Below, piece by piece: positions 18,125 through 47,792 of a stretch of 64,000 nucleotides of DNA. Origin of the DNA: Anaeromyxobacteraceae bacterium (GTDB taxonomy: Bacteria; Myxococcota; Myxococcia; Myxococcales; Anaeromyxobacteraceae); the NCBI GenBank assembly GCA_047602405.1, contig JASGHJ010000002.1, positions 1,984,001-2,048,000 of the forward strand, given 5' to 3'. Made by a program: the position numbers and the translations under genes. The notes under the pieces were generated by a model, which saw nothing but the letters and a program-made list of their open reading frames with translations, did no database searches and was not told the origin of the DNA. How positions within the stretch are numbered: the stretch's first letter is position 1; the number at the start of each line of letters is the position of its first letter.

Positions 18125-19697
<1,573 letters not shown>

Positions 19698-19711
19698 GGT
19701 GTCGATCTCCC

Positions 19712-21415
19712 CTACCCGTCGATCATGTCGTTGAGCGGCGCGCCGGCCGGGACCATCGGGAACACCTTCTGGTCCCGCGGGATCCGCACGTCGACGATGG
19801 TGGGCCCATCCTTGTTGGCGAGGGCGCGGTCGATGACCTGATCGAGCTCCGCCACCGTCCTCGCGCGCAGGCCCAGGCAGCCGTACGCGTCCGCGAGCTT
19901 CACGAGGTCCGGCCGATCGGAGAGCGGGGTCTCGGCGAAGCGCTCCTCGTAGAACAGCTCCTGCCACTGGCGGACCATGCCCAGGAACAGGTTGTTGAGG
20001 ACGAAGATCTTGAAGGGGAGCTTCAGGTCCACCGCGGTGGCGAGGTCCTGGAGCGTCATCTGGAACGACCCGTCGCCGTCGAAGCCGATGACGGTCGCGT
20101 CGGGCCGGCCGAGCTGGATGCCGATCGCCGACGGCAGGCAGAAGCCCATCGTGCCGAGGCCGCCGGAGGTGATGAACTGTCGGGGCTCGCTCGTCTTCCA
20201 CCACTGCGCGGCGAACATCTGGTGCTCGCCGACGCCCGTCGTGACGACCGCCTTCCCGCCGGTCTTCTGCCAGATCCGGTCGACGACGTACTGGGCCTGC
20301 AGCGCGCCCTCGGGCTCCTGGTGGTACTTGAGCGGGAACTTCTCCCGCCAGTCGTCCACCTTGCGCCACCAGGCCGCGAGGTCGGGCTTGCCGCTCGCGG
20401 CGAAGGCCCGGCGGACCTCCTCGGTGAGCTGCGGGAGGAGCCGCTTGAGATCGCCCACGAGCGGAACGGTGGCGGTCACGAGCTTCGAGATCTCGGCCGG
20501 GTCGACGTCGAGGTGGACCACCTTCGCCTCGGGGGCGAAGGTGGAGAGCTTCCCGGTGACCCGGTCGTCGAAGCGGGCGCCGAGCGCGATGATGAGGTCG
20601 GACGCCTGGATGGCGTAGTTCGCGTACTTCGCGCCGTGCATGCCGAACATGCCGAGGCATTGGCGGTTCGTCTCGGGGAAGGAGCCCTTCCCGTGCACGG
20701 TGGTGATGACCGGCGCGCCGACGAGCTCGCAGAACTGCATGACCTCGGCGTGGGCCGAGGCGGTCCGCACGCCGCCGCCCAGGTAGATGACCGGGCGGGT
20801 GGCGGAGCGGACGAGCGCGGCGGCGTCCTTCAGGCGCGGCTCGCCGGAGGACGGCGGGTGGTAGCCCGGGATGTCGACCGTCTCCGGGTACTCGAACTCG
20901 ATCTCGGTGTTGAGGACGTCCTTCGGGATGTCCACGAGCACCGGGCCCGGGCGGCCCGTGCGGGCAATGTAGAAGGCCTCCTTCATCACCCGCGGGACGT
21001 CGTGCGCGTCGGTCACGAGCCAGTTGTGCTTCGTGATCGGCACGGTGATGCCGGTGATGTCGGCCTCCTGGAACGCGTCGGTGCCGATGAGGCTCGAGGA
21101 CACGTTCGCGGTGATCGCGACGAGCGGCACCGAGTCCATGTAGGCGTCGGCGATGGGCGTGACGAGGTTCGTCGCGCCGGGGCCGGAGGTGCCGAGGCAG
21201 ACGCCCACCTTGCCGGTCGCGTGCGCGTAGCCCTCCGCGGCGTGGCCGCCGACCTGCTCGTGGCGCACCAGCACGTGCCGCGGGCTCTCGATGCCGTACA
21301 TCGCGTCGTAGAGCGGCAGGATCGTCCCGCCCGGCACGCCGAAGATCACCTCCACGCCCTCGGCCTGCAGGGCGCGGAGGACCGCCTCGGCCGCCTTCAT
21401 CTTCTTCTTCGCCAT
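19712..21415 (-). CDS. ilvB: Acetolactate synthase large subunit
   Basis: RHEQ, TSGPGATN, RFDDRVTG, GDGSFQM, GMVRQWQ. Confidence 0.95.
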   Translation of the reverse strand: MAKKKMKAAEAVLRALQAEGVEVIFGVPGGTILPLYDAMYGIESPRHVLVRHEQVGGHAAEGYAHATGKVGVCLGTSGPGATNLVTPIADAYMDSVPLVAITANVSSSLIGTDAFQEADITGITVPITKHNWLVTDAHDVPRVMKEAFYIARTGRPGPVLVDIPKDVLNTEIEFEYPETVDIPGYHPPSSGEPRLKDAAALVRSATRPVIYLGGGVRTASAHAEVMQFCELVGAPVITTVHGKGSFPETNRQCLGMFGMHGAKYANYAIQASDLIIALGARFDDRVTGKLSTFAPEAKVVHLDVDPAEISKLVTATVPLVGDLKRLLPQLTEEVRRAFAASGKPDLAAWWRKVDDWREKFPLKYHQEPEGALQAQYVVDRIWQKTGGKAVVTTGVGEHQMFAAQWWKTSEPRQFITSGGLGTMGFCLPSAIGIQLGRPDATVIGFDGDGSFQMTLQDLATAVDLKLPFKIFVLNNLFLGMVRQWQELFYEERFAETPLSDRPDLVKLADAYGCLGLRARTVAELDQVIDRALANKDGPTIVDVRIPRDQKVFPMVPAGAPLNDMIDG

Positions 21416-21420
21416 GGTGT

Positions 21421-21996
21421 CTAGACCGTCCTCTTCTCGTGAGCCGTGATCGCCGCGTCCTGCCCGAGGAGGTAGCCGAGCTCGTCGACCCCGTTCAGCA
21501 GGCAGTACTTCGCGAAGCCGTCGATGGGGAACGTGGCGGAGCTGCCGTCCGGCAGCGTGATGCTCTGGGCCGCCACGTCGATGCGTACCTTCGCGCCCGG
21601 GGCGGCGAGGAGCTTCGCGTGGGCGGCGGGGTCGAGCACGATCGGCACGAGGCCGTTCTTCAGGCTGTTGTTGCGGAAGATGTCGGCGATGCGGGTCGAC
21701 ACCACCGCCTGGAAACCCGCGTCCACGAGCGCCCAGGGGGCGTGCTCGCGGGACGAGCCGCAGCCGAAGTTGTCGCCGGCCACCAGCACCCGGCACCCCT
21801 CGGCGGCCCTCGTGTTGAGCACGAACTCGGGCCGCGGCGCGCCGGACGCGTCGTAGCGCCAGTCGCTGAAGAGGACCTTGCCGAGCCCCTTCTTGTCGGT
21901 GGTCTTGAGGAAGCGCGCCGGGATGATCTGGTCGGTGTCCACGTTCTCGCGCGGGAGCACGACCGTCGTCGATTCGATGATCTTGAGCGGCTCCAT
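21421..21996 (-). CDS. leuD: 3-isopropylmalate dehydratase small subunit
   Basis: [20 protein letters not shown]. Confidence 0.96.
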
Positions 21997-23424
21997 CTAG
22001 CGGTTCTCCAGGATGCGACGGGGATCCGCGACGGCGCCCTCGACGGCGGCCGCCGCGGCGGTCAGCGGGCTCGCGAGCAGCGTCCGCCCGCCCGGCCCCT
22101 GCCGCCCCTCGAAGTTGCGGTTGGACGTCGAGACGCAGGTCTGCCCGGGCCTGAGGTCGTCGCCGTTCATGGCGATGCACATCGAGCAGCCCGGCTCGCG
22201 CCACTCGGCGCCCGCGGCCCTCACGATCTCGTGCAGCCCCTCGGCCTCGGCGGCCCGCTGCACCGCGCGGGAGCCGGGGACGACCAGCGTGCGGATCTTC
22301 ACCTTGCGCCCCTTCAGCACCGCCGCGGCGGCGCGGAGGTCCTCGAGCCGGCCGTTCGTGCAGGAGCCCACGAACACGGCGTCGACCTTGCGGCCCAGGA
22401 TGGCCTGGTTCGGCTCGAGCCCCATGTAGCGGAGCGCGGCCTCGAGCGTCGCGCGGGAGGCCGCGTCGCGCTCGGCGGCGGGATCGGGCACGCGGCCGGA
22501 GATGCCGATGCCCTGCGCCGGGTTCGTGCCGAAGGTGATCATCGGCTCGATGGCCGAGCCGTCGAGCGTGACGGTCCGGTCGAAGGCCGCGCCGGCGTCG
22601 GTGGGGAGCGCGCGCCAGCGGGCCACGGCCGCGTCCCACGCGGCGCCCTTCGGCGTCCGGGGCCGCCCCTCGAGCCACCGGAAGGTCACGTCGTCCGGCG
22701 CGACCATGCCGGCGCGGGCGCCGCCCTCGATCGACATGTTGCAGAGGGTCATCCGCGCCTCCATCGAGAGCGCGCGGATGGCGGCGCCGGTGTACTCGAT
22801 GACGTGGCCGGTGCCGCCCCCGACGCCGATCTTCGCGATGATCGCGAGGATCACGTCCTTCGCCGACACGCCCGGGGCGAGCGCCCCGTCCACCCGGATC
22901 TCGAGGGTGCGGGGGCGGCGCTGCAGCAGGCTCTGCGTCGCGAGCACGTGCCCGACCTCGGAGGTGCCGATGCCGAACGCGAGCGCGCCGAACGCGCCGT
23001 GCGTCGCGGTGTGGCTGTCGCCGCAGACCACCGTCATGCCGGGCTGGGTGGCCCCCTGCTCCGGCGCGAACACGTGCACGACGCCCTGGGCCGCGTCGCC
23101 GAGGCCGTGCAGCTCGACGCCGAAGTCCTTCGCGTTCCGCTCGAGCATGCGGACCTGCGCCTCCGCCTGCGCGTCGATGAACGGCCACTTCCCGTCCGGC
23201 CCGGGCGGCAGCGTCGGGATCGAGTGGTCCATCGTGGCGAGCGTGCGCTCGGGGCGGCGGACCTTCAGGCCCCGCTCGCGGAGCAGCGTGAACGCCTGCG
23301 GGCTCGTCACCTCGTGCACGAGGTGGAGGTCGACGTAGAGCACCGCCGGGGTCTCCGGGGTCTCCGGGACGACGACGTGGGCGTCCCACACCTTCTCGAA
23401 CAGCGTGCGCGGCTTCGTGGTCAT
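21997..23424 (-). CDS. leuC: 3-isopropylmalate dehydratase large subunit
   Basis: [34 protein letters not shown]. Confidence 0.97.
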
Positions 23425-25020
<1,596 letters not shown>

Positions 25021-25119
25021 GGCGTTACCTCGGCTCCGTTCTGCGGGGGCCGGAGGAGCGTGCTCGCCTTGTCGAGGGCGCCTCTCCGGCCGGGTTCGGC
25101 GGGAGAGGGCGCGGCGCGG

Positions 25120-25185
25120 TCAGACCGGCCGGGGAGCCTCTCCCGCCGGGGTAAGAAGTCGAATGTCGCGCGTTACGAAAGACAC
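25120..25185 (-). CDS. Putative leu/ilv leader peptide MSFVTRDIRLLTPAGEAPRPV
   Basis: 22-codon ORF with AT-ending GTA(Val), ATT(Ile), CTT-CTT(Leu-Leu) codons directly upstream of leuA. Confidence 0.7.
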   Translation of the reverse strand: MSFVTRDIRLLTPAGEAPRPV

Positions 25186-25193
25186 GGAGGGGC

Positions 25194-25222
25194 AGCCTAT
25201 CGGCTGGCTCCGCGTCCGTCAA
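25194..25222 (-). promoter_or_regulatory. Sigma70-type promoter for the leu-ilv operon
   Basis: TTGACG (25222-25217), N17, TAGGCT (25199-25194). Confidence 0.65.
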
Positions 25223-25315
25223 GGCGGAGGCCCTGCTCGGCCGGCCGCCGGGGCGGATCCGTGACCCTCGGTGCGCCGCGCTCCCCCGGAGGAGGAGCGC
25301 CCACCGCCGCCGCCG

Positions 25316-26650
25316 TCAGCGGCCACCGTCCGGGCGCCGGAACGCCTCGTTCACGAGCAGCCGCCGGAGCTCCTCCCGCAGCACGGGCGGCACCGCCTCG
25401 TCCTCCTGCCACCGGGCCACGTAGTCGGCGACGATCGGCGAGGTGCGGGTGAACGACGAGAGCGACCACCCCGCGGTGACGTAGAGGACGGCGCGCGCGA
25501 GCTCCGGAGTCAGCGGCTTGTCCTGATCGGGCGTCTCCCGGGCCTTCACGAGGACGCCGTAGTCGTCCCGGAAGCGCAGGAGATCCACGATCGCACGGAC
25601 TGGCTCCGGGCGCCCCGTGGCCATGAGCTCCGCCCACAGGAGGTCCATCCGCTGGGTCGTCGCGTTCAGGCTCGCCGGTGCCGGGTCGAGCGCGTAGCCA
25701 ACCGGGCGCGCCGGGAAGGCCTCGATCCGCGTGCGCCACTCCGGCGAGAGGGAGCCCGCGAGCGCGGAGCCGTCCCGGTGCGCCCAGCGGAGCGCGATCG
25801 CGCCCAGCGCGCGGGACGGCTCCTCCTCGCCCTTCAGCGCGGCGACGATCGACGCCACGACCCCGGGCGGCGCGGCCTCGATCGCGTGGGATGGGACCCC
25901 GACCACCGTGAAGGGATCCTTCGCCATCCGCGCCGCGAGCCGGAGCGCCGCCCCGAGGTGCTGCGGCTCCGGCGCCGCCGCATAGCCGCCCATCCACGCC
26001 TGCAGCGAGGCACCGTCCTGGAATGGTGGCGTCGCGGCGGCGACGGCCCAGGGCTCCACCACGAGCCGGGCGGGGGCGAGCGCGACCCGCCGGCCATCCG
26101 GGAGCGTCGCCTCGCCCTCGACCGTCACCTCCGTGCGGCCGGTCACCTCCGGCGCGATCCAGCGCGGCACGACCGCGGCGACGCTCACGGGCGTGACCGC
26201 ATCGTCGATCCTCCGGCGCTCGGCCTCGGGAACGCCCGCGGCGCCGAGCAGGTGAACCAGCTGGTGCGCGCCTTCCGACCTGACCTTTCTCACGGCCTCG
26301 GGACGCAGCGGGCCGACCTTCGTCTCGCCGCCGGCTCCGGCGATGCGGTACGTGAGCCTGCAGCCCTGCAGGAGCGCGTCGCGTCCCTCCCCCTCCGCGA
26401 CGAGGGCGATCGCGATCCCCTGCCCGGGGACCACGGCCTTGCGGGAGACGGGCGCGCTGATGCGCTCGCCCGCTGCCGGCCAGGCCACGCGCACCGGCTC
26501 CGGGGCGAGGAGCAGGACCTGCGGGACGAGGTGCGCAGGCGTCGCGCTGGGCGGCGCCGCGGCTGCGTCCGTCCGCAGGACGGCGGCGAGGAGCACGAGG
26601 GTCGTGAACAGCCGGAGCGCCCCTCCCGCCGGAGTCGATGGGGTGCGCAT
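25316..26650 (-). CDS. Hypothetical secreted protein
   Basis: 444-aa ORF with signal-peptide-like N-terminus; no recognised motif. Confidence 0.65.
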   Translation of the reverse strand: MRTPSTPAGGALRLFTTLVLLAAVLRTDAAAAPPSATPAHLVPQVLLLAPEPVRVAWPAAGERISAPVSRKAVVPGQGIAIALVAEGEGRDALLQGCRLTYRIAGAGGETKVGPLRPEAVRKVRSEGAHQLVHLLGAAGVPEAERRRIDDAVTPVSVAAVVPRWIAPEVTGRTEVTVEGEATLPDGRRVALAPARLVVEPWAVAAATPPFQDGASLQAWMGGYAAAPEPQHLGAALRLAARMAKDPFTVVGVPSHAIEAAPPGVVASIVAALKGEEEPSRALGAIALRWAHRDGSALAGSLSPEWRTRIEAFPARPVGYALDPAPASLNATTQRMDLLWAELMATGRPEPVRAIVDLLRFRDDYGVLVKARETPDQDKPLTPELARAVLYVTAGWSLSSFTRTSPIVADYVARWQEDEAVPPVLREELRRLLVNEAFRRPDGGR

Positions 26651-26782
26651 GATCCCTCCCGCGCGACGTGCCGACGCGGCGCTCGCCGAGGACCTCGACG
26701 GAAGCACGCCCGCGGGGCCGTGTCCACGACCGCAGCTTCACGGCCGTCAGCGGGAGCGGGTGCGACAGCCTGCCGCCGCGGA

Positions 26783-28204
26783 TCAGCGTGCCGTGGGCAT
26801 GCCGCGCTCCCCCCAGAGGAGCACCCGCGCGTCGAAGTCGACGGGCCCCGCGATCGTGAGCGCGCCGGCGGGGAGCCCGGCCCAGCGCGCGAGCGCGGCC
26901 GTCGCCTCGGCGTGCGCCGCGGCATCGGTCAGGGAGAGCCGCGAGAGGCTCGCGCCGTGGTTCGCGCCCGCGACGACGTACCGGTGGCCGTCGAGGGCGG
27001 CGTTCGGCTGGAACGGCTGCGCCGACCACGGATCGCGCTCGCCGTAGACGAACATCAGCCGCTCGCCGTGGGCCTTCACCCAGTCGTCGACGTCGGGCAT
27101 CGCCGCCGGGTCCCAGGGCTTGTCCGCCGCCGGCGGGTAGACCCCCGGCACGTCGTTCGTGGGAACGCCGCCCGGGAGCAGATCGAGGAGGTGGTCCTGC
27201 CGGTAGGCGGGCCCGCCGAGCTGGGTCGCCGACTGCTGGTAGTAGGGCGCGAAGTAGGTGAGCGCGGAGTCGCCGACCCAGTCCAGCACCCCGAGCACGG
27301 CGTCCATGAAAGCGAAGAGCGACGAGGCGGAGGCGTCGACCGGCGGGATGGCGGCGCAGTTCGCCGCCGACCCGTACTGCCAGAAGGCGAACGGCAGCTC
27401 GACGGTCGCGTACTCGAAGGCGCGGTCGGGGCCGAGCAGCGTGTACCCGTCGCCCTGCTGCGCGGCGGCCTGCTCGAAGAGCGGCTGGACCTCCGCGCGG
27501 CGCGAAAGCAGCGTCCGCTGGAACGCGCGCAGCTGCTCGCGGCACGCCGCGGTGCCGGCGCCGCCGATCGCGTCCACGAACGGTACGTAGGCGGCGTCGG
27601 ACGTCGAGAACGACTGAGGCGCGACGTAGGCGACCGTGCCGTCCACGTCGCCCGGCCAGAAGCGCCGGTGGTAGACCGCCGTCATCCCGCCCTTCGAGGC
27701 GCCGACCGAGAGCCACCTCCCCTCCCCCAGCACCGGCCGCAGCGCCTGCACGATGCGGTGGTGGTCGGCGGCGGCCTGCTCGATGTCGAGCCTCGACCAG
27801 TCCGCCGGGTCGGGCCGCGACGGCGAGAAGAAGCGGTGCTCGACCGTGAGCTGGTTCGCGCCGAGGAGCGCCGTCAGCTCGGCCCGGCCCGGGTTGCGGC
27901 TCGCGCCGTAGCCGTTCGTGCCGAACACGACGGGGAGCGCGCGATCCTTGAAGAGGAGCGCCGCGAACTGCTGGAAGGTCGGGCTCGCCGGATTGGCGTG
28001 GTCGATCGGCTGCTCGAGCTGGAGGAGGAAGAGCCGGTACCCGGGCTCGGGCGTCTCGGCCTCGTCCACCCGCACGACGTGGGGCGCGAGCGCGAGCGCC
28101 TCGTCGATCGGGAGCGGAGGCTCCACGGTCTGCCGGGTCGCGCCGCCGCCTCCGCACGCGGCGAGGAGCGCGAGGAGCGCGAGGGCGGGCCGGTGACTGC
28201 GCAT
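26783..28204 (-). CDS. S28/S37-family serine peptidase lipoprotein (tripeptidyl aminopeptidase-like)
   Basis: Lipobox LAAC, QPIDH, VEHRFF, GASKGG nucleophile, DPW, NH. Confidence 0.85.
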   Translation of the reverse strand: MRSHRPALALLALLAACGGGGATRQTVEPPLPIDEALALAPHVVRVDEAETPEPGYRLFLLQLEQPIDHANPASPTFQQFAALLFKDRALPVVFGTNGYGASRNPGRAELTALLGANQLTVEHRFFSPSRPDPADWSRLDIEQAAADHHRIVQALRPVLGEGRWLSVGASKGGMTAVYHRRFWPGDVDGTVAYVAPQSFSTSDAAYVPFVDAIGGAGTAACREQLRAFQRTLLSRRAEVQPLFEQAAAQQGDGYTLLGPDRAFEYATVELPFAFWQYGSAANCAAIPPVDASASSLFAFMDAVLGVLDWVGDSALTYFAPYYQQSATQLGGPAYRQDHLLDLLPGGVPTNDVPGVYPPAADKPWDPAAMPDVDDWVKAHGERLMFVYGERDPWSAQPFQPNAALDGHRYVVAGANHGASLSRLSLTDAAAHAEATAALARWAGLPAGALTIAGPVDFDARVLLWGERGMPTAR

Positions 28205-28356
28205 GGGTCTCATCAGACAACCACGACGCGGCGCGACGCAACCCACCCGACCCCAGCGTCAAGGCCGGTCGAGGCGACGGGGCCATGGCGGCGCCGCGCC
28301 TTGACACCCTCGCGAGCCGGGCACGAAGATCGACGAGACCGCGGCGCCGCACCGCC

Positions 28357-30187: not shown

Positions 30188-32252
30188 ATGACGATCGGCC
30201 GCCGGTCCTTCCTCAAGGCTGCAGCAGCGATGGGCGCCTCACTCGCATGGGCCGGATCGGCCAAGGGCGCCCGCGTGCCCTGGCAGGAGCGGCGCGAGCT
30301 GTATCCTCAAGGGGTCGCGTCCGGCGATCCCGACCCGCACAGCGTCCTCCTCTGGACGAGGCGCCCGTTCGCGGACGGCGCCCGCCACGTCCTGAGCGTC
30401 GAGGTGGCGGAGGACGAGGCCTTCCGCCGGGTCATCGCGCGCGCGAAGGCCCCGGTCACGAGCGCCTCCGACTGGACGGCGCGCGTGCTGGTCGGCGGCC
30501 TCCGGCCGGCGCACACCTACTGGTACCGGTTCGCCGACGCCGACGGGAACGGCAGCCGGGTCGGCCGCACGATCACCGCGCCCTCGCCGGACGATCCGCG
30601 CACGGTGAACTTCGCCTTCGTGAGCTGCCAGGACCTGAACGAGGGCAAGCTCAACGCCTACCGCCGGATGATCTTCGAGGACGAGCGCGCGCCCGCCGGC
30701 GAACGCCTCGACTTCGTCCTGCACCTCGGCGACTTCATCTACGAGGTGGTCGAGTATCCGGACGAGGCGAAGACCCGCTTCGACCGCACGATCTACGAGG
30801 TCGCGCGCATCCCGGACGGCCACAAGGTCGGCAACTTCCACATCCCGCTGACCCTCGAGGGCTACCGGGCCATCTACCGCGGCTACCTCGCCGACCCCGA
30901 CCTCCAGGACGCGCGCGCGCGCTGGCCGTTCGTCGCCATCTGGGACAACCACGAGTTCTCGTGGCAAGGCTGGCAGAGCAACTTGAAGGCGGGGCCGTTC
31001 GAGCGGCCGGGCCAGAGCATCAAGGTCGCGGCGAACCAGGCGTGGTTCGAGTACCTCCCCGCGCGCGTCTCGCGAGCGGGCCGGCCGCTCGAGCGCTTCG
31101 ATCCACCTGCCGTGAAGGACGTCCCGGTCGTCGAGTTCGACGCCGACGGCCTCGGGACCGAGCCCAACAACCTCACGGCCATCCACAGCCTCCGGGTCTA
31201 CCGGGCCCTGCGGTTCGGCCGGCACGTCGACCTCCTCCTCACCGATCAGCGCAGCTACCGGAGCGCGGATCCCTTCTCCGAATCCGTCCCTCGGGAAGCT
31301 CGGCGGCGAGGAGTACGAGGAGATGTTCCCCGAGCACGAGATGCGGGTCCTCGACGGCGGGCGCGCCTTCGACGGCGGCCACCCGCCCGCGGAGATCCGC
31401 TTCAACGACGCGCACGTGCCGAACCCGCAGCGGAGCGCGCCGCCGCAGACGATCCTCGGGGCCGAGCAGAAGGCGTGGTTCAAGGACCAGCTCCGGCGCT
31501 CGACCGCGACGTGGAAGATTCGGGGCAACTCCCTGGGCGCGCTCGACAAGCGCGCCGATCCGCAGAACCTGCCCCCGGGGCTCACGAAGGAGCCGTGGCC
31601 TCCCGGCGCCTACGCCTTCGTGGGCGCCCCCGACTTCGCCACCGCCTGGGCCGAGCGCGCCGAGCTCTTCGGGCACGTGCGCGACGCGAAGATCACCGGC
31701 TTCGCCATCGTCTCGGGCGACCGGCACAGCTTCTGGGCCGGGTACGCGGCCTCGGACCTCCCGCCCGGCAAGTTCGAGCCGGTCGGCCTCTCCTTCGTGG
31801 GCGGGTCGCTCACGAGCCCGGGCACCATGGAGGCCCAGGAGCACCGCCTCCCGAAGGACGCGCCGCTGCGCGCGCTGTTCCTCGCGGACAGGAAGGACGG
31901 CGCGAAGCCGGCCTGGACCTTCAACATGCTGCTGCGCCACGGCGTCCGTGCCTGCCTCGAGTACGCGCGGAGCTTCGACCTCGAGCGCGCGCGGGCGCTG
32001 TCGAACCCCGAGCTCGCGCCGCACCTCGAGTTCGTGGACCTCGGCGGCCACGGTTACGCGAAGGTCCGCGCCTCGGCCGGCGAGCTGCGCACCGAGTTCG
32101 TCTGCATCCCGCGCCCGATCGCCCGGAGCGAGACGCCCGACGGCGGGCCGATCCGTTACCGGGTGGCGCTCACCGCCCCGCTCTGGAAGAGCGGCGAGCG
32201 CCCGCGCCTCGAGACCAGGGTGCTCGAGGGCGACGTCGGGCTGTCGATCTGA
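30188..32252 (+). CDS. phoD: PhoD-family alkaline phosphatase, Tat-exported; +1 frameshift at ~31281
   Basis: RRSFLK Tat motif, GVASGDP, HLGDFIYE, WDNHE, SGDRH. Confidence 0.88.
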
Positions 32253-47720: not shown

Positions 47721-47792
47721 TGGGCACCGCTGGGATCGAACCAGCGACCCCCTGCGTGTCAAGCAGGTGCTCTACCACTGAGCTAGGCGCCC
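47721..47792 (-). tRNA. tRNA-Val(GAC)
   Basis: GGGCGCC acceptor, AGCTCAGTGGTAGAGC D arm, TTGACAC anticodon loop, GGTTCGATCC T arm; CCA not encoded. Confidence 0.96.

Follow-up and report, generated by a model that had tools for sequence, protein, structure and literature searches.

The question raised by this locus was whether the DNA preceding a leu-ilv operon encodes an amino-acid-responsive leader, as a first-pass annotation had proposed, and, if so, which amino acid is sensed and which step of expression is switched. The window (the whole stretch of DNA that was analyzed; 64,000 nt) carries the leader on its minus strand, directly upstream of leuA, and the genes behind it lie in the order leuA-leuC-leuD-ilvB-ilvH-ilvC (Table 1). 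The leader is single-copy in the source genome (G000), and a crude scan of that genome for further run-of-codon leaders found none. The gene leuB is located apart from the leu-ilv operon (G000:C2:2203098-2205729, minus strand), behind a distant leuA paralog that has no leader peptide and that we guess to be cimA-like; the leuB match is split over two overlapping frames, a possible frameshift. Rho is encoded in the genome; two rho-like genes were found (G000:C1:2160685-2161938 and C2:2991797-2992873), of which one exceeds the family cut-off and the other falls short of it.

Table 1. Features of the leader and of the operon behind it (positions in the window)
Feature	Positions	Strand	Observation
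Predicted promoter, -35 hexamer TTGACG	25217..25222	minus	TTG 17-18 nt before TAnnnT in 51/56 homologs
-10 hexamer TAGGCT (TAnnnT type)	25194..25199	minus	17 nt after the -35; 8 nt before the uORF GTG
Near-leaderless uORF, 21 codons + TGA	25120..25185	minus	GTG at 25185, TGA at 25120; no SD; peptide MSFVTRDIRLLTPAGEAPRPV
Segment 1, control codons CTT CTT (Leu10-Leu11), preceded by CGA	25153..25158	minus	Conserved in unbiased leaders
Segment 2, in the uORF (Ala-Gly-Glu codons), 5' arm of ON helix 2:3	25137..25147	minus	Paired change in L219
Segment 3, partner of segment 2 (ON) or segment 4 (OFF)	25098..25108	minus	Folding and covariation
Segment 4, closes G+C-rich hairpin 3:4 (OFF) or pairs with segment 5 (ON)	25081..25091	minus	Folding, covariation
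Segment 5, anti-SD; partner of segment 4 (ON) or of the SD region (OFF)	25048..25058	minus	4:5 covariation
Segment 6, Shine-Dalgarno (SD) region of leuA	25028..25037	minus	Opening energies
leuA, 2-isopropylmalate synthase (TIGR00973 type)	23425..25020	minus	First operon gene; ATG at 25020
leuC, leuD, ilvB, ilvH, ilvC (rest of the operon)	18125..23424	minus	NCBIfam matches above cut-off

The surroundings of the operon were also inspected. Two ORFs upstream of the leader (25316-26707 and 26783-28246, minus strand) had no NCBIfam match at E 1e-10; the first looks like a recent insertion, since it is not at the same position in the closest relative (L002). A plus-strand gene at 30188-32252, which we take to be alkaline-phosphatase-D-like, is apparently split over two frames near 31300, possibly by a frameshift.

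Homologs were sought in 185,579 species genomes with a pattern that fixed CTTCTT; for this reason, the resulting 56 loci were used for the gene link, the start, and the promoter only, and not for codon conservation. They are labeled as Anaeromyxobacter, Anaeromyxobacteraceae, Myxococcales, and unclassified delta/proteobacterial MAGs. All but one precede leuA, which is of the TIGR00973 type in 50 cases and of a second type in five; the remaining locus ends at a contig edge. The second type is PRK03739-like, as judged from its N-terminus, and the two leuA types are non-orthologous. When the Leu codons were omitted from the pattern, matches were obtained in 44 of the family's 73 other genomes, in none of 227 other genomes of the class, and in no control. 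Among 23 same-genus type-1 leuA loci, the leader is present in 14 and absent in 9.

A metagenome scan yielded 84 loci, 79 with leuA downstream, 3 truncated or broken, and 2 due to chance. These loci include a sister subfamily, in which the downstream LeuA is 43-57% identical to that of the window or of the second type. Its leaders encode Leu-rich peptides and share the core of the family-type leaders. A sequence model built on the sister subfamily was run on 80 genomes and returned only the window leader (E 1.1e-7) and three weak matches. Two of these are real, namely L217 and L219, which are distant, A+T-rich homologs and precede a second-type leuA. The sister-type pattern had no match in 351 genomes of the phylum; the lineage is identified only through LeuA proteins 90-93% identical to that of the sister-type locus L131, which NCBI labels “Myxococcota bacterium” and “Deltaproteobacteria bacterium”, and we guess its class to be UBA9160. 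Weak DNA matches in G019, G011, G003, and G007 were rejected (no leader motif), and three further matches were attributed to chance and left out of the counts: L106 and L109, from the metagenome, and L218, which lies within a GGDEF-like gene. In L131 and its relatives P0001-P0024, the sister-type LeuA has ca. 390 aa and no C-terminal PF08502 domain. Feedback inhibition is thus likely absent from LeuA of this type, and the attenuator may be its main leucine control.

The promoter that had been described in the first pass (TTGACG and TAGGCT, followed by a GTG start) is present in all its parts on the minus strand. A strict sigma-70 promoter/terminator scan returned 0 promoters and 0 intrinsic terminators; it missed the predicted promoter of the leader because its consensus is too strict for the TAnnnT sites of this genome. 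The distance from the -10 element to the uORF start is 7-10 nt in 51 of the 56 homologs, and the start codon, frame, and stop of the uORF are kept across homologs. A start in frame and linked to a -35 element was found in 69/70 family-type and 44/50 sister-type leaders. The proposed near-leaderless uORF is thus conserved. Near-leaderless initiation fits the geometry from promoter to start, a layout that appears common genome-wide: a long ORF opens 6-10 nt downstream of 34 of the 165 TTG-N-TAnnnT promoter-like sites in G000. Many genes on both contigs of this genome look leaderless or near-leaderless (ATG or GTG 6-10 nt after the -10). In a set of 100 promoter-like sites taken genome-wide, four open a short ORF, and CTT-CTT occurs only in that of the leader. 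Contigs from RNA runs cannot reveal a start; the leader was compared with 24 such runs (word shares ≤0.15 in all), and two short, near-identical contigs (X1 and X6; four runs compared) span the junction from leader to leuA, showing neither start, strand, nor level. Variants of the uORF were also noted. In L090/L037, about ten codons have been inserted in frame; the peptide is longer, and the spacing from the Leu pair to segment 2 is unchanged. One MAG has the leader in two near-identical copies on different contigs (L063 and L064).

Within the uORF, GCGGGAGAGG (25146-25137) is exactly complementary to CCTCTCCCGC (25108-25099), just as the first-pass annotation had stated; this is helix 2:3. 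The second helix that it named, which involves the tail of the uORF, can also be formed (11 of 12 positions with one mismatch; duplex -21.5 kcal/mol). The idea of competing helices was therefore sound, but the main rival of 2:3 is the hairpin 3:4 (25108-25081) and not the uORF-tail helix, which was stronger than the rival duplex in only 16/68 family-type and 0/45 sister-type leaders. The 193-nt leader folds with z = -3.73, and none of 200 shuffled sequences was as stable; hairpin 3:4 has a calculated energy of -26.6 kcal/mol.

Covariation was assessed in an alignment (A1) of 56 family-type sequences; as these are related, the shuffle counts given here are not probabilities. Segments 3 and 4 are paired in 98.9% of A1 cells (1/500 shuffles as high), and at one 3:4 pair, U-G occurs 29 times, U-A 14 times, C-G 13 times, and C-A never. 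Segments 4 and 5 are paired in 92.4% of cells, with double changes from G-C to A-U in 10/56 sequences (8/500 shuffles). Pairing of 2:3 amounts to 97.9% of cells, and its covariation is absent in A1 because the search pattern fixed those bases. The distant homologs L219 and L217 carry paired changes in 2:3, 3:4, 4:5, and 5:6, and both fold through the same switch.

The effect of translation was modeled by sliding a mask, representing the ribosome, along the uORF and computing the equilibrium folds. The folding sets exclude L093 and seven leaders whose start calls are doubtful; L058 and L063 gave no start. When the mask reached segment 2 of the window leader, the fold flipped cleanly from 2:3 with 4:5 to 3:4 with 5:6. 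The flip point is at the Leu codons: a ribosome edge of +12 on the first CTT left the fold ON, and an edge of +15 turned it OFF, so the state predicted for a Leu stall depends on the footprint assumed. A run-through mask led to 3:4 in 67/67 family-type and 43-44/45 sister-type leaders. With a mask at the Leu stall, 2:3 was favored at full-length equilibrium in only 38/67 family-type and 23/45 sister-type leaders. Folding during transcription should favor 2:3 more strongly, we infer, since this helix can form before segment 4 exists and is the more stable (median hairpin energies -35.5 kcal/mol for 2:3 and -24.4 kcal/mol for 3:4).

Given the promoter-like site, the uORF, the codon conservation described below, the complementarity, the covariation of 3:4 and 4:5, the link to leuA, and the lack of a U-tract, we consider it probable that the leader is a leucine-sensing, ribosome-stalling attenuator with access to the leuA ribosome-binding site (RBS), and not intrinsic termination, as its predicted output. 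In such a scheme, a ribosome would initiate at the GTG, which would lie at the 5' end of the RNA or close to it. If Leu-tRNA were scarce, the ribosome would stall on the CTT-CTT pair, and its leading edge would not quite reach segment 2; helix 2:3 would form, segment 4 would capture the anti-SD segment 5, and leuA would be translated. With ample leucine, the ribosome would pass segment 2, 3:4 would form, segment 5 would pair with the SD region, and initiation at leuA would be blocked. Silencing of leuC through ilvC might then follow from translational coupling or from Rho polarity.

The predicted output was examined through the energy needed to open the RBS. For the window leader, this energy was 6.5 kcal/mol in the ON state and 18.4 kcal/mol in the OFF state. 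In all 68 family-type leaders, opening was cheaper with segment 4 free (median 11.3 kcal/mol), and segment 4 performed better than shuffled versions of itself. Opening was also cheaper in 38/45 sister-type leaders, but it beat the shuffle in only 22/45; L219 failed to beat its shuffled control in ON opening energy (7.4 vs. 7.7). Full-length equilibrium folds of 67 family-type leaders showed no consistent switch at the SD (unpairing up in 16, down in 12; median change 0.00). Of the outputs entertained in the first pass, RBS sequestration is the likely one as judged from the opening energies and the 4:5 covariation, a prediction that the full-length equilibrium unpairing did not reproduce. Translational control of this kind requires that the ATG after segment 6 be the true start of LeuA. 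This ATG is in frame with LeuA in 57/60 type-1 homologs, over 21 extension lengths of 39-204 nt, and is for that reason probably the real start.

The same leucine sensor could instead act mainly on transcription, with termination at or after 3:4 (either Rho-dependent or at a U-poor intrinsic site) and the 5:6 pairing secondary. This is suggested by the imperfect U-rich tail that follows 3:4 in the sister subfamily (mean of 6.1 T in 12 nt, vs. 2.8 in family-type leaders), by the strength of 3:4, by the C-richness of the leader (C 0.47-0.48 vs. G 0.30-0.32) in a genome that has rho, and by the need for operon-level control of five downstream genes. However, no U-tract terminator was found at the window leader, as the first reading of the sequence had held, or elsewhere in this clade, and the 4:5/5:6 exchange is strong and conserved exactly where the tail has been lost (68/68 family-type vs. 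22/45 sister-type leaders beat the shuffle). We regard termination as an unlikely main output.

What the leader senses was addressed through its codons. The rarity of GTA, ATT, and CTT-CTT that had been remarked upon in the window extends to the whole genome: in 2170 long coding-like frames, CTT accounts for 0.92% of Leu codons, ATT for 0.91% of Ile codons, and GTA for 0.62% of Val codons. An unbiased set of relatives was assembled by a class search with a pattern omitting the Leu codons (30 loci fetched, 28 distinct leaders). CGA-CTT-CTT is invariant in 28/28, while the flanking codons vary; at the position of the window's Ile codon, His occurs in 17, Arg in 5, and Ile in 2. In 70 distinct metagenome leaders, whose pattern omits the codon, the last CTT stands at a fixed spacing, about 2-3 codons before segment 2, in 70/70, and the two codons preceding this conserved CTT encode Leu in 61 and 48 cases, as CTC, CTG, CTT, and TTG. 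Sister-type peptides contain 4-10 Leu each, and their neighboring Leu codons vary synonymously (CTG/CTC/TTG/CTT). L219 encodes RLL as CGA-CTA-CTA. Alignment of relatives, the check that had been suggested for the proposed sensing of Leu, Ile, and Val, thus upheld the Leu pair and not the Ile and Val codons, and the conserved Leu codons beside a variable Ile position indicate that the signal is leucine. CTT is among the Leu codons that are sensitive to starvation in Escherichia coli, according to the available part of 10.1101/492207. The genome has a tRNA-Leu(GAG), and by analogy to the E. coli data in that part of 10.1101/492207, CTT may be read by this tRNA and be starvation-sensitive here as well. 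Two Leu codons are few for a sensor, which counts against the attenuator model.

A non-classical mechanism, similar to that of the actinobacterial LEU element, would dispense with tRNA charging as the signal: either a protein binds the RNA, or the Leu codons pair with the SD region. Conservation of the core is seen at the nucleotide level: within the family, neither segment 2 nor CGA-CTT-CTT has undergone synonymous changes. In the naked RNA of the window, the Leu codons do pair with the SD region in the fold. Doubts of this sort have been published for Streptomyces; in the portion of PMC1262725 that was available, control-codon mutations in the leuA and ilvB leaders of S. coelicolor behaved unlike classical attenuation. 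Nevertheless, the duplex of segments 1 and 6 is weak (-7.2 kcal/mol in the window, median -5.1 kcal/mol) and is better with a leader's own SD than with others' in only 10/68 cases; further, Leu codons are replaced synonymously in the sister subfamily and in distant homologs, and the frame, start, and stop are conserved. We judge this mechanism improbable. 

Free leucine or another ligand might also be sensed by an arrest peptide (RLLxxAGE), in the way that TnaC senses tryptophan, and the motif L-x-x-A-G/A-E is indeed near invariant in both subfamilies. Against this, the AGE residues are accounted for by the pairing of their codons with segment 3, both the length and the N-terminal residues are freely variable, and a rare codon is kept (CTT, or CTA in L219), which points to decoding and not to the peptide; an arrest peptide thus appears very improbable. 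The multivalent Leu/Ile/Val attenuator of the first-pass annotation, for which the presence of ilvB-ilvH-ilvC in the operon, the rare GTA and ATT in the window peptide, and the frequency of GTA at codon 4 in the family can be adduced, is scarcely credible given that the Ile is unconserved, that 9/70 family-type peptides contain neither Ile nor Val, and that the Val codon is too far upstream of the switch position. Overall, the conserved leader is likely to be a genuine leucine attenuator, for which a translational output is predicted.

The history of this attenuator was approached through its placement at different leuA genes. In genomes G001 and G009, the leader is found on the second-type leuA, and their type-1 leuA has none. 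An extended -10 motif occurs inside the N-terminal extension of LeuA in 27/36 long extensions vs. 0/24 short ones, and by eye the long extensions contain an SD and GTG resembling those found in genomes without the leader, in which the gene before leuA presumably ends like thrS. These retained elements (extended -10, SD, and GTG) suggest that the incoming cassette brought its own start codon and came to lie before an older promoter. At eight loci (L012, L014, L015, L018, L021, L007, L013, and L020), an older promoter-like extended -10 lies between the cassette ATG and the leuA core, implying two promoters and two putative LeuA isoforms; the genome of the window has lost the inner promoter-like stretch. 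Leader and start codon seem to have been transferred as one cassette from one leuA paralog to another. A LeuA tree required three changes of leader label, but it is poorly resolved and does not fix the order of gain and loss. As the sister subfamily shares the core and has the U-rich tail, terminator-type and translational leaders may both exist within one family. A fuller scenario can be drawn tentatively, and we would place it slightly short of probable: a single family was rewired between a Leu-rich terminator form and a two-codon form that lost its U-tract and has the 4:5/5:6 relay onto the SD, and the cassette (promoter, sensor, relay, SD, and start codon) moved between non-orthologous leuA genes, where in-frame fusion over an older promoter produced regulated and unregulated starts in tandem.

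The leader would be a regulatory element for amino-acid synthesis in Myxococcota, where our literature search found no attenuator described. The two subfamilies would constitute a natural pair of homologous leaders in which to study the change of an attenuator's output from transcription to translation and the smallest number of control codons that will do. The leader also bears on how terminator-less leucine leaders work, a question raised for the actinobacterial leuA leaders. The N-termini of many annotated LeuA proteins are predicted to need correction, and the leader might be developed into a compact leucine biosensor for hosts of high G+C content.

Several known systems resemble this leader. 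In translational attenuators of the ermC/ermB type, the position of the ribosome on a uORF drives a helix relay that frees the SD, and antibiotic-dependent arrest disrupts the first helix. The likeness lies in the uORF-driven relay onto the SD; here, by contrast, segment 2 is predicted to remain free during the stall. The actinobacterial LEU element, as described in the accessible part of PMC1262725, shares a leuA leader, a uORF with Leu codons, the lack of a terminator, and a proposed involvement of the SD. Its defining features there are a pseudoknot and a base stem in which Leu codons pair with the SD, whereas nested alternative helices are supported here; the comparison with actinobacterial leuA leaders made in the first pass holds as an analogy only, the stem between Leu codons and SD being weak and free of co-adaptation. 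The mycobacterial polycysteine leaderless attenuators, represented by Ms5788A, have in common with the present leader a leaderless uORF, a sensor of amino-acid codons, and sequestration of the SD (predicted here), as far as the available portion of 10.1101/834739 describes them. In Ms5788A, it is the control codons that pair with the SD, and a stalled ribosome prevents them from doing so (same portion of 10.1101/834739), whereas a three-helix relay ca. 120 nt long is predicted here, for a different amino acid and lineage.

A search of the literature on attenuation, leader peptides, leuA, and uORFs in Anaeromyxobacter and myxobacteria, and on LEU1/Lyubetsky, returned no description in this lineage; supplements, and subscription-journal surveys covering delta-proteobacteria, were outside its scope. 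A term search of the text available for PMC2965389, PMC4833913, and 10.64898/2026.05.12.723736 gave no mention of leuA. With Rfam 15, the sole match at gathering level in the window was a tRNA-Val(GAC) at 47721-47792 (minus strand); there was no match up to E 5 in 24900-25400 and none of relevance in 20 homologous loci. The attenuator of E. coli and Salmonella leuL is represented in Rfam as Leu_leader (RF00512). With leuL, and with the leuA leaders of Streptococcus as presented in the accessible part of PMC5314783, the present leader shares a uORF with Leu codons before leuA, the alternative of 2:3 and 3:4, and a stall that is predicted to favor the ON state. It differs from them in having no U-tract, only two Leu codons, a near-leaderless start, and an additional 4:5/5:6 relay onto the SD. 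Of the features by which a leuL-type attenuator is recognized, control codons of the pathway and mutually exclusive 2:3 and 3:4 helices placed by those codons are present; an intrinsic terminator formed by 3:4 with a U-tract is found neither in the window nor in the family-type leaders. The element is thus likely an uncatalogued variant of the textbook attenuator, one that operates without the usual transcription terminator.
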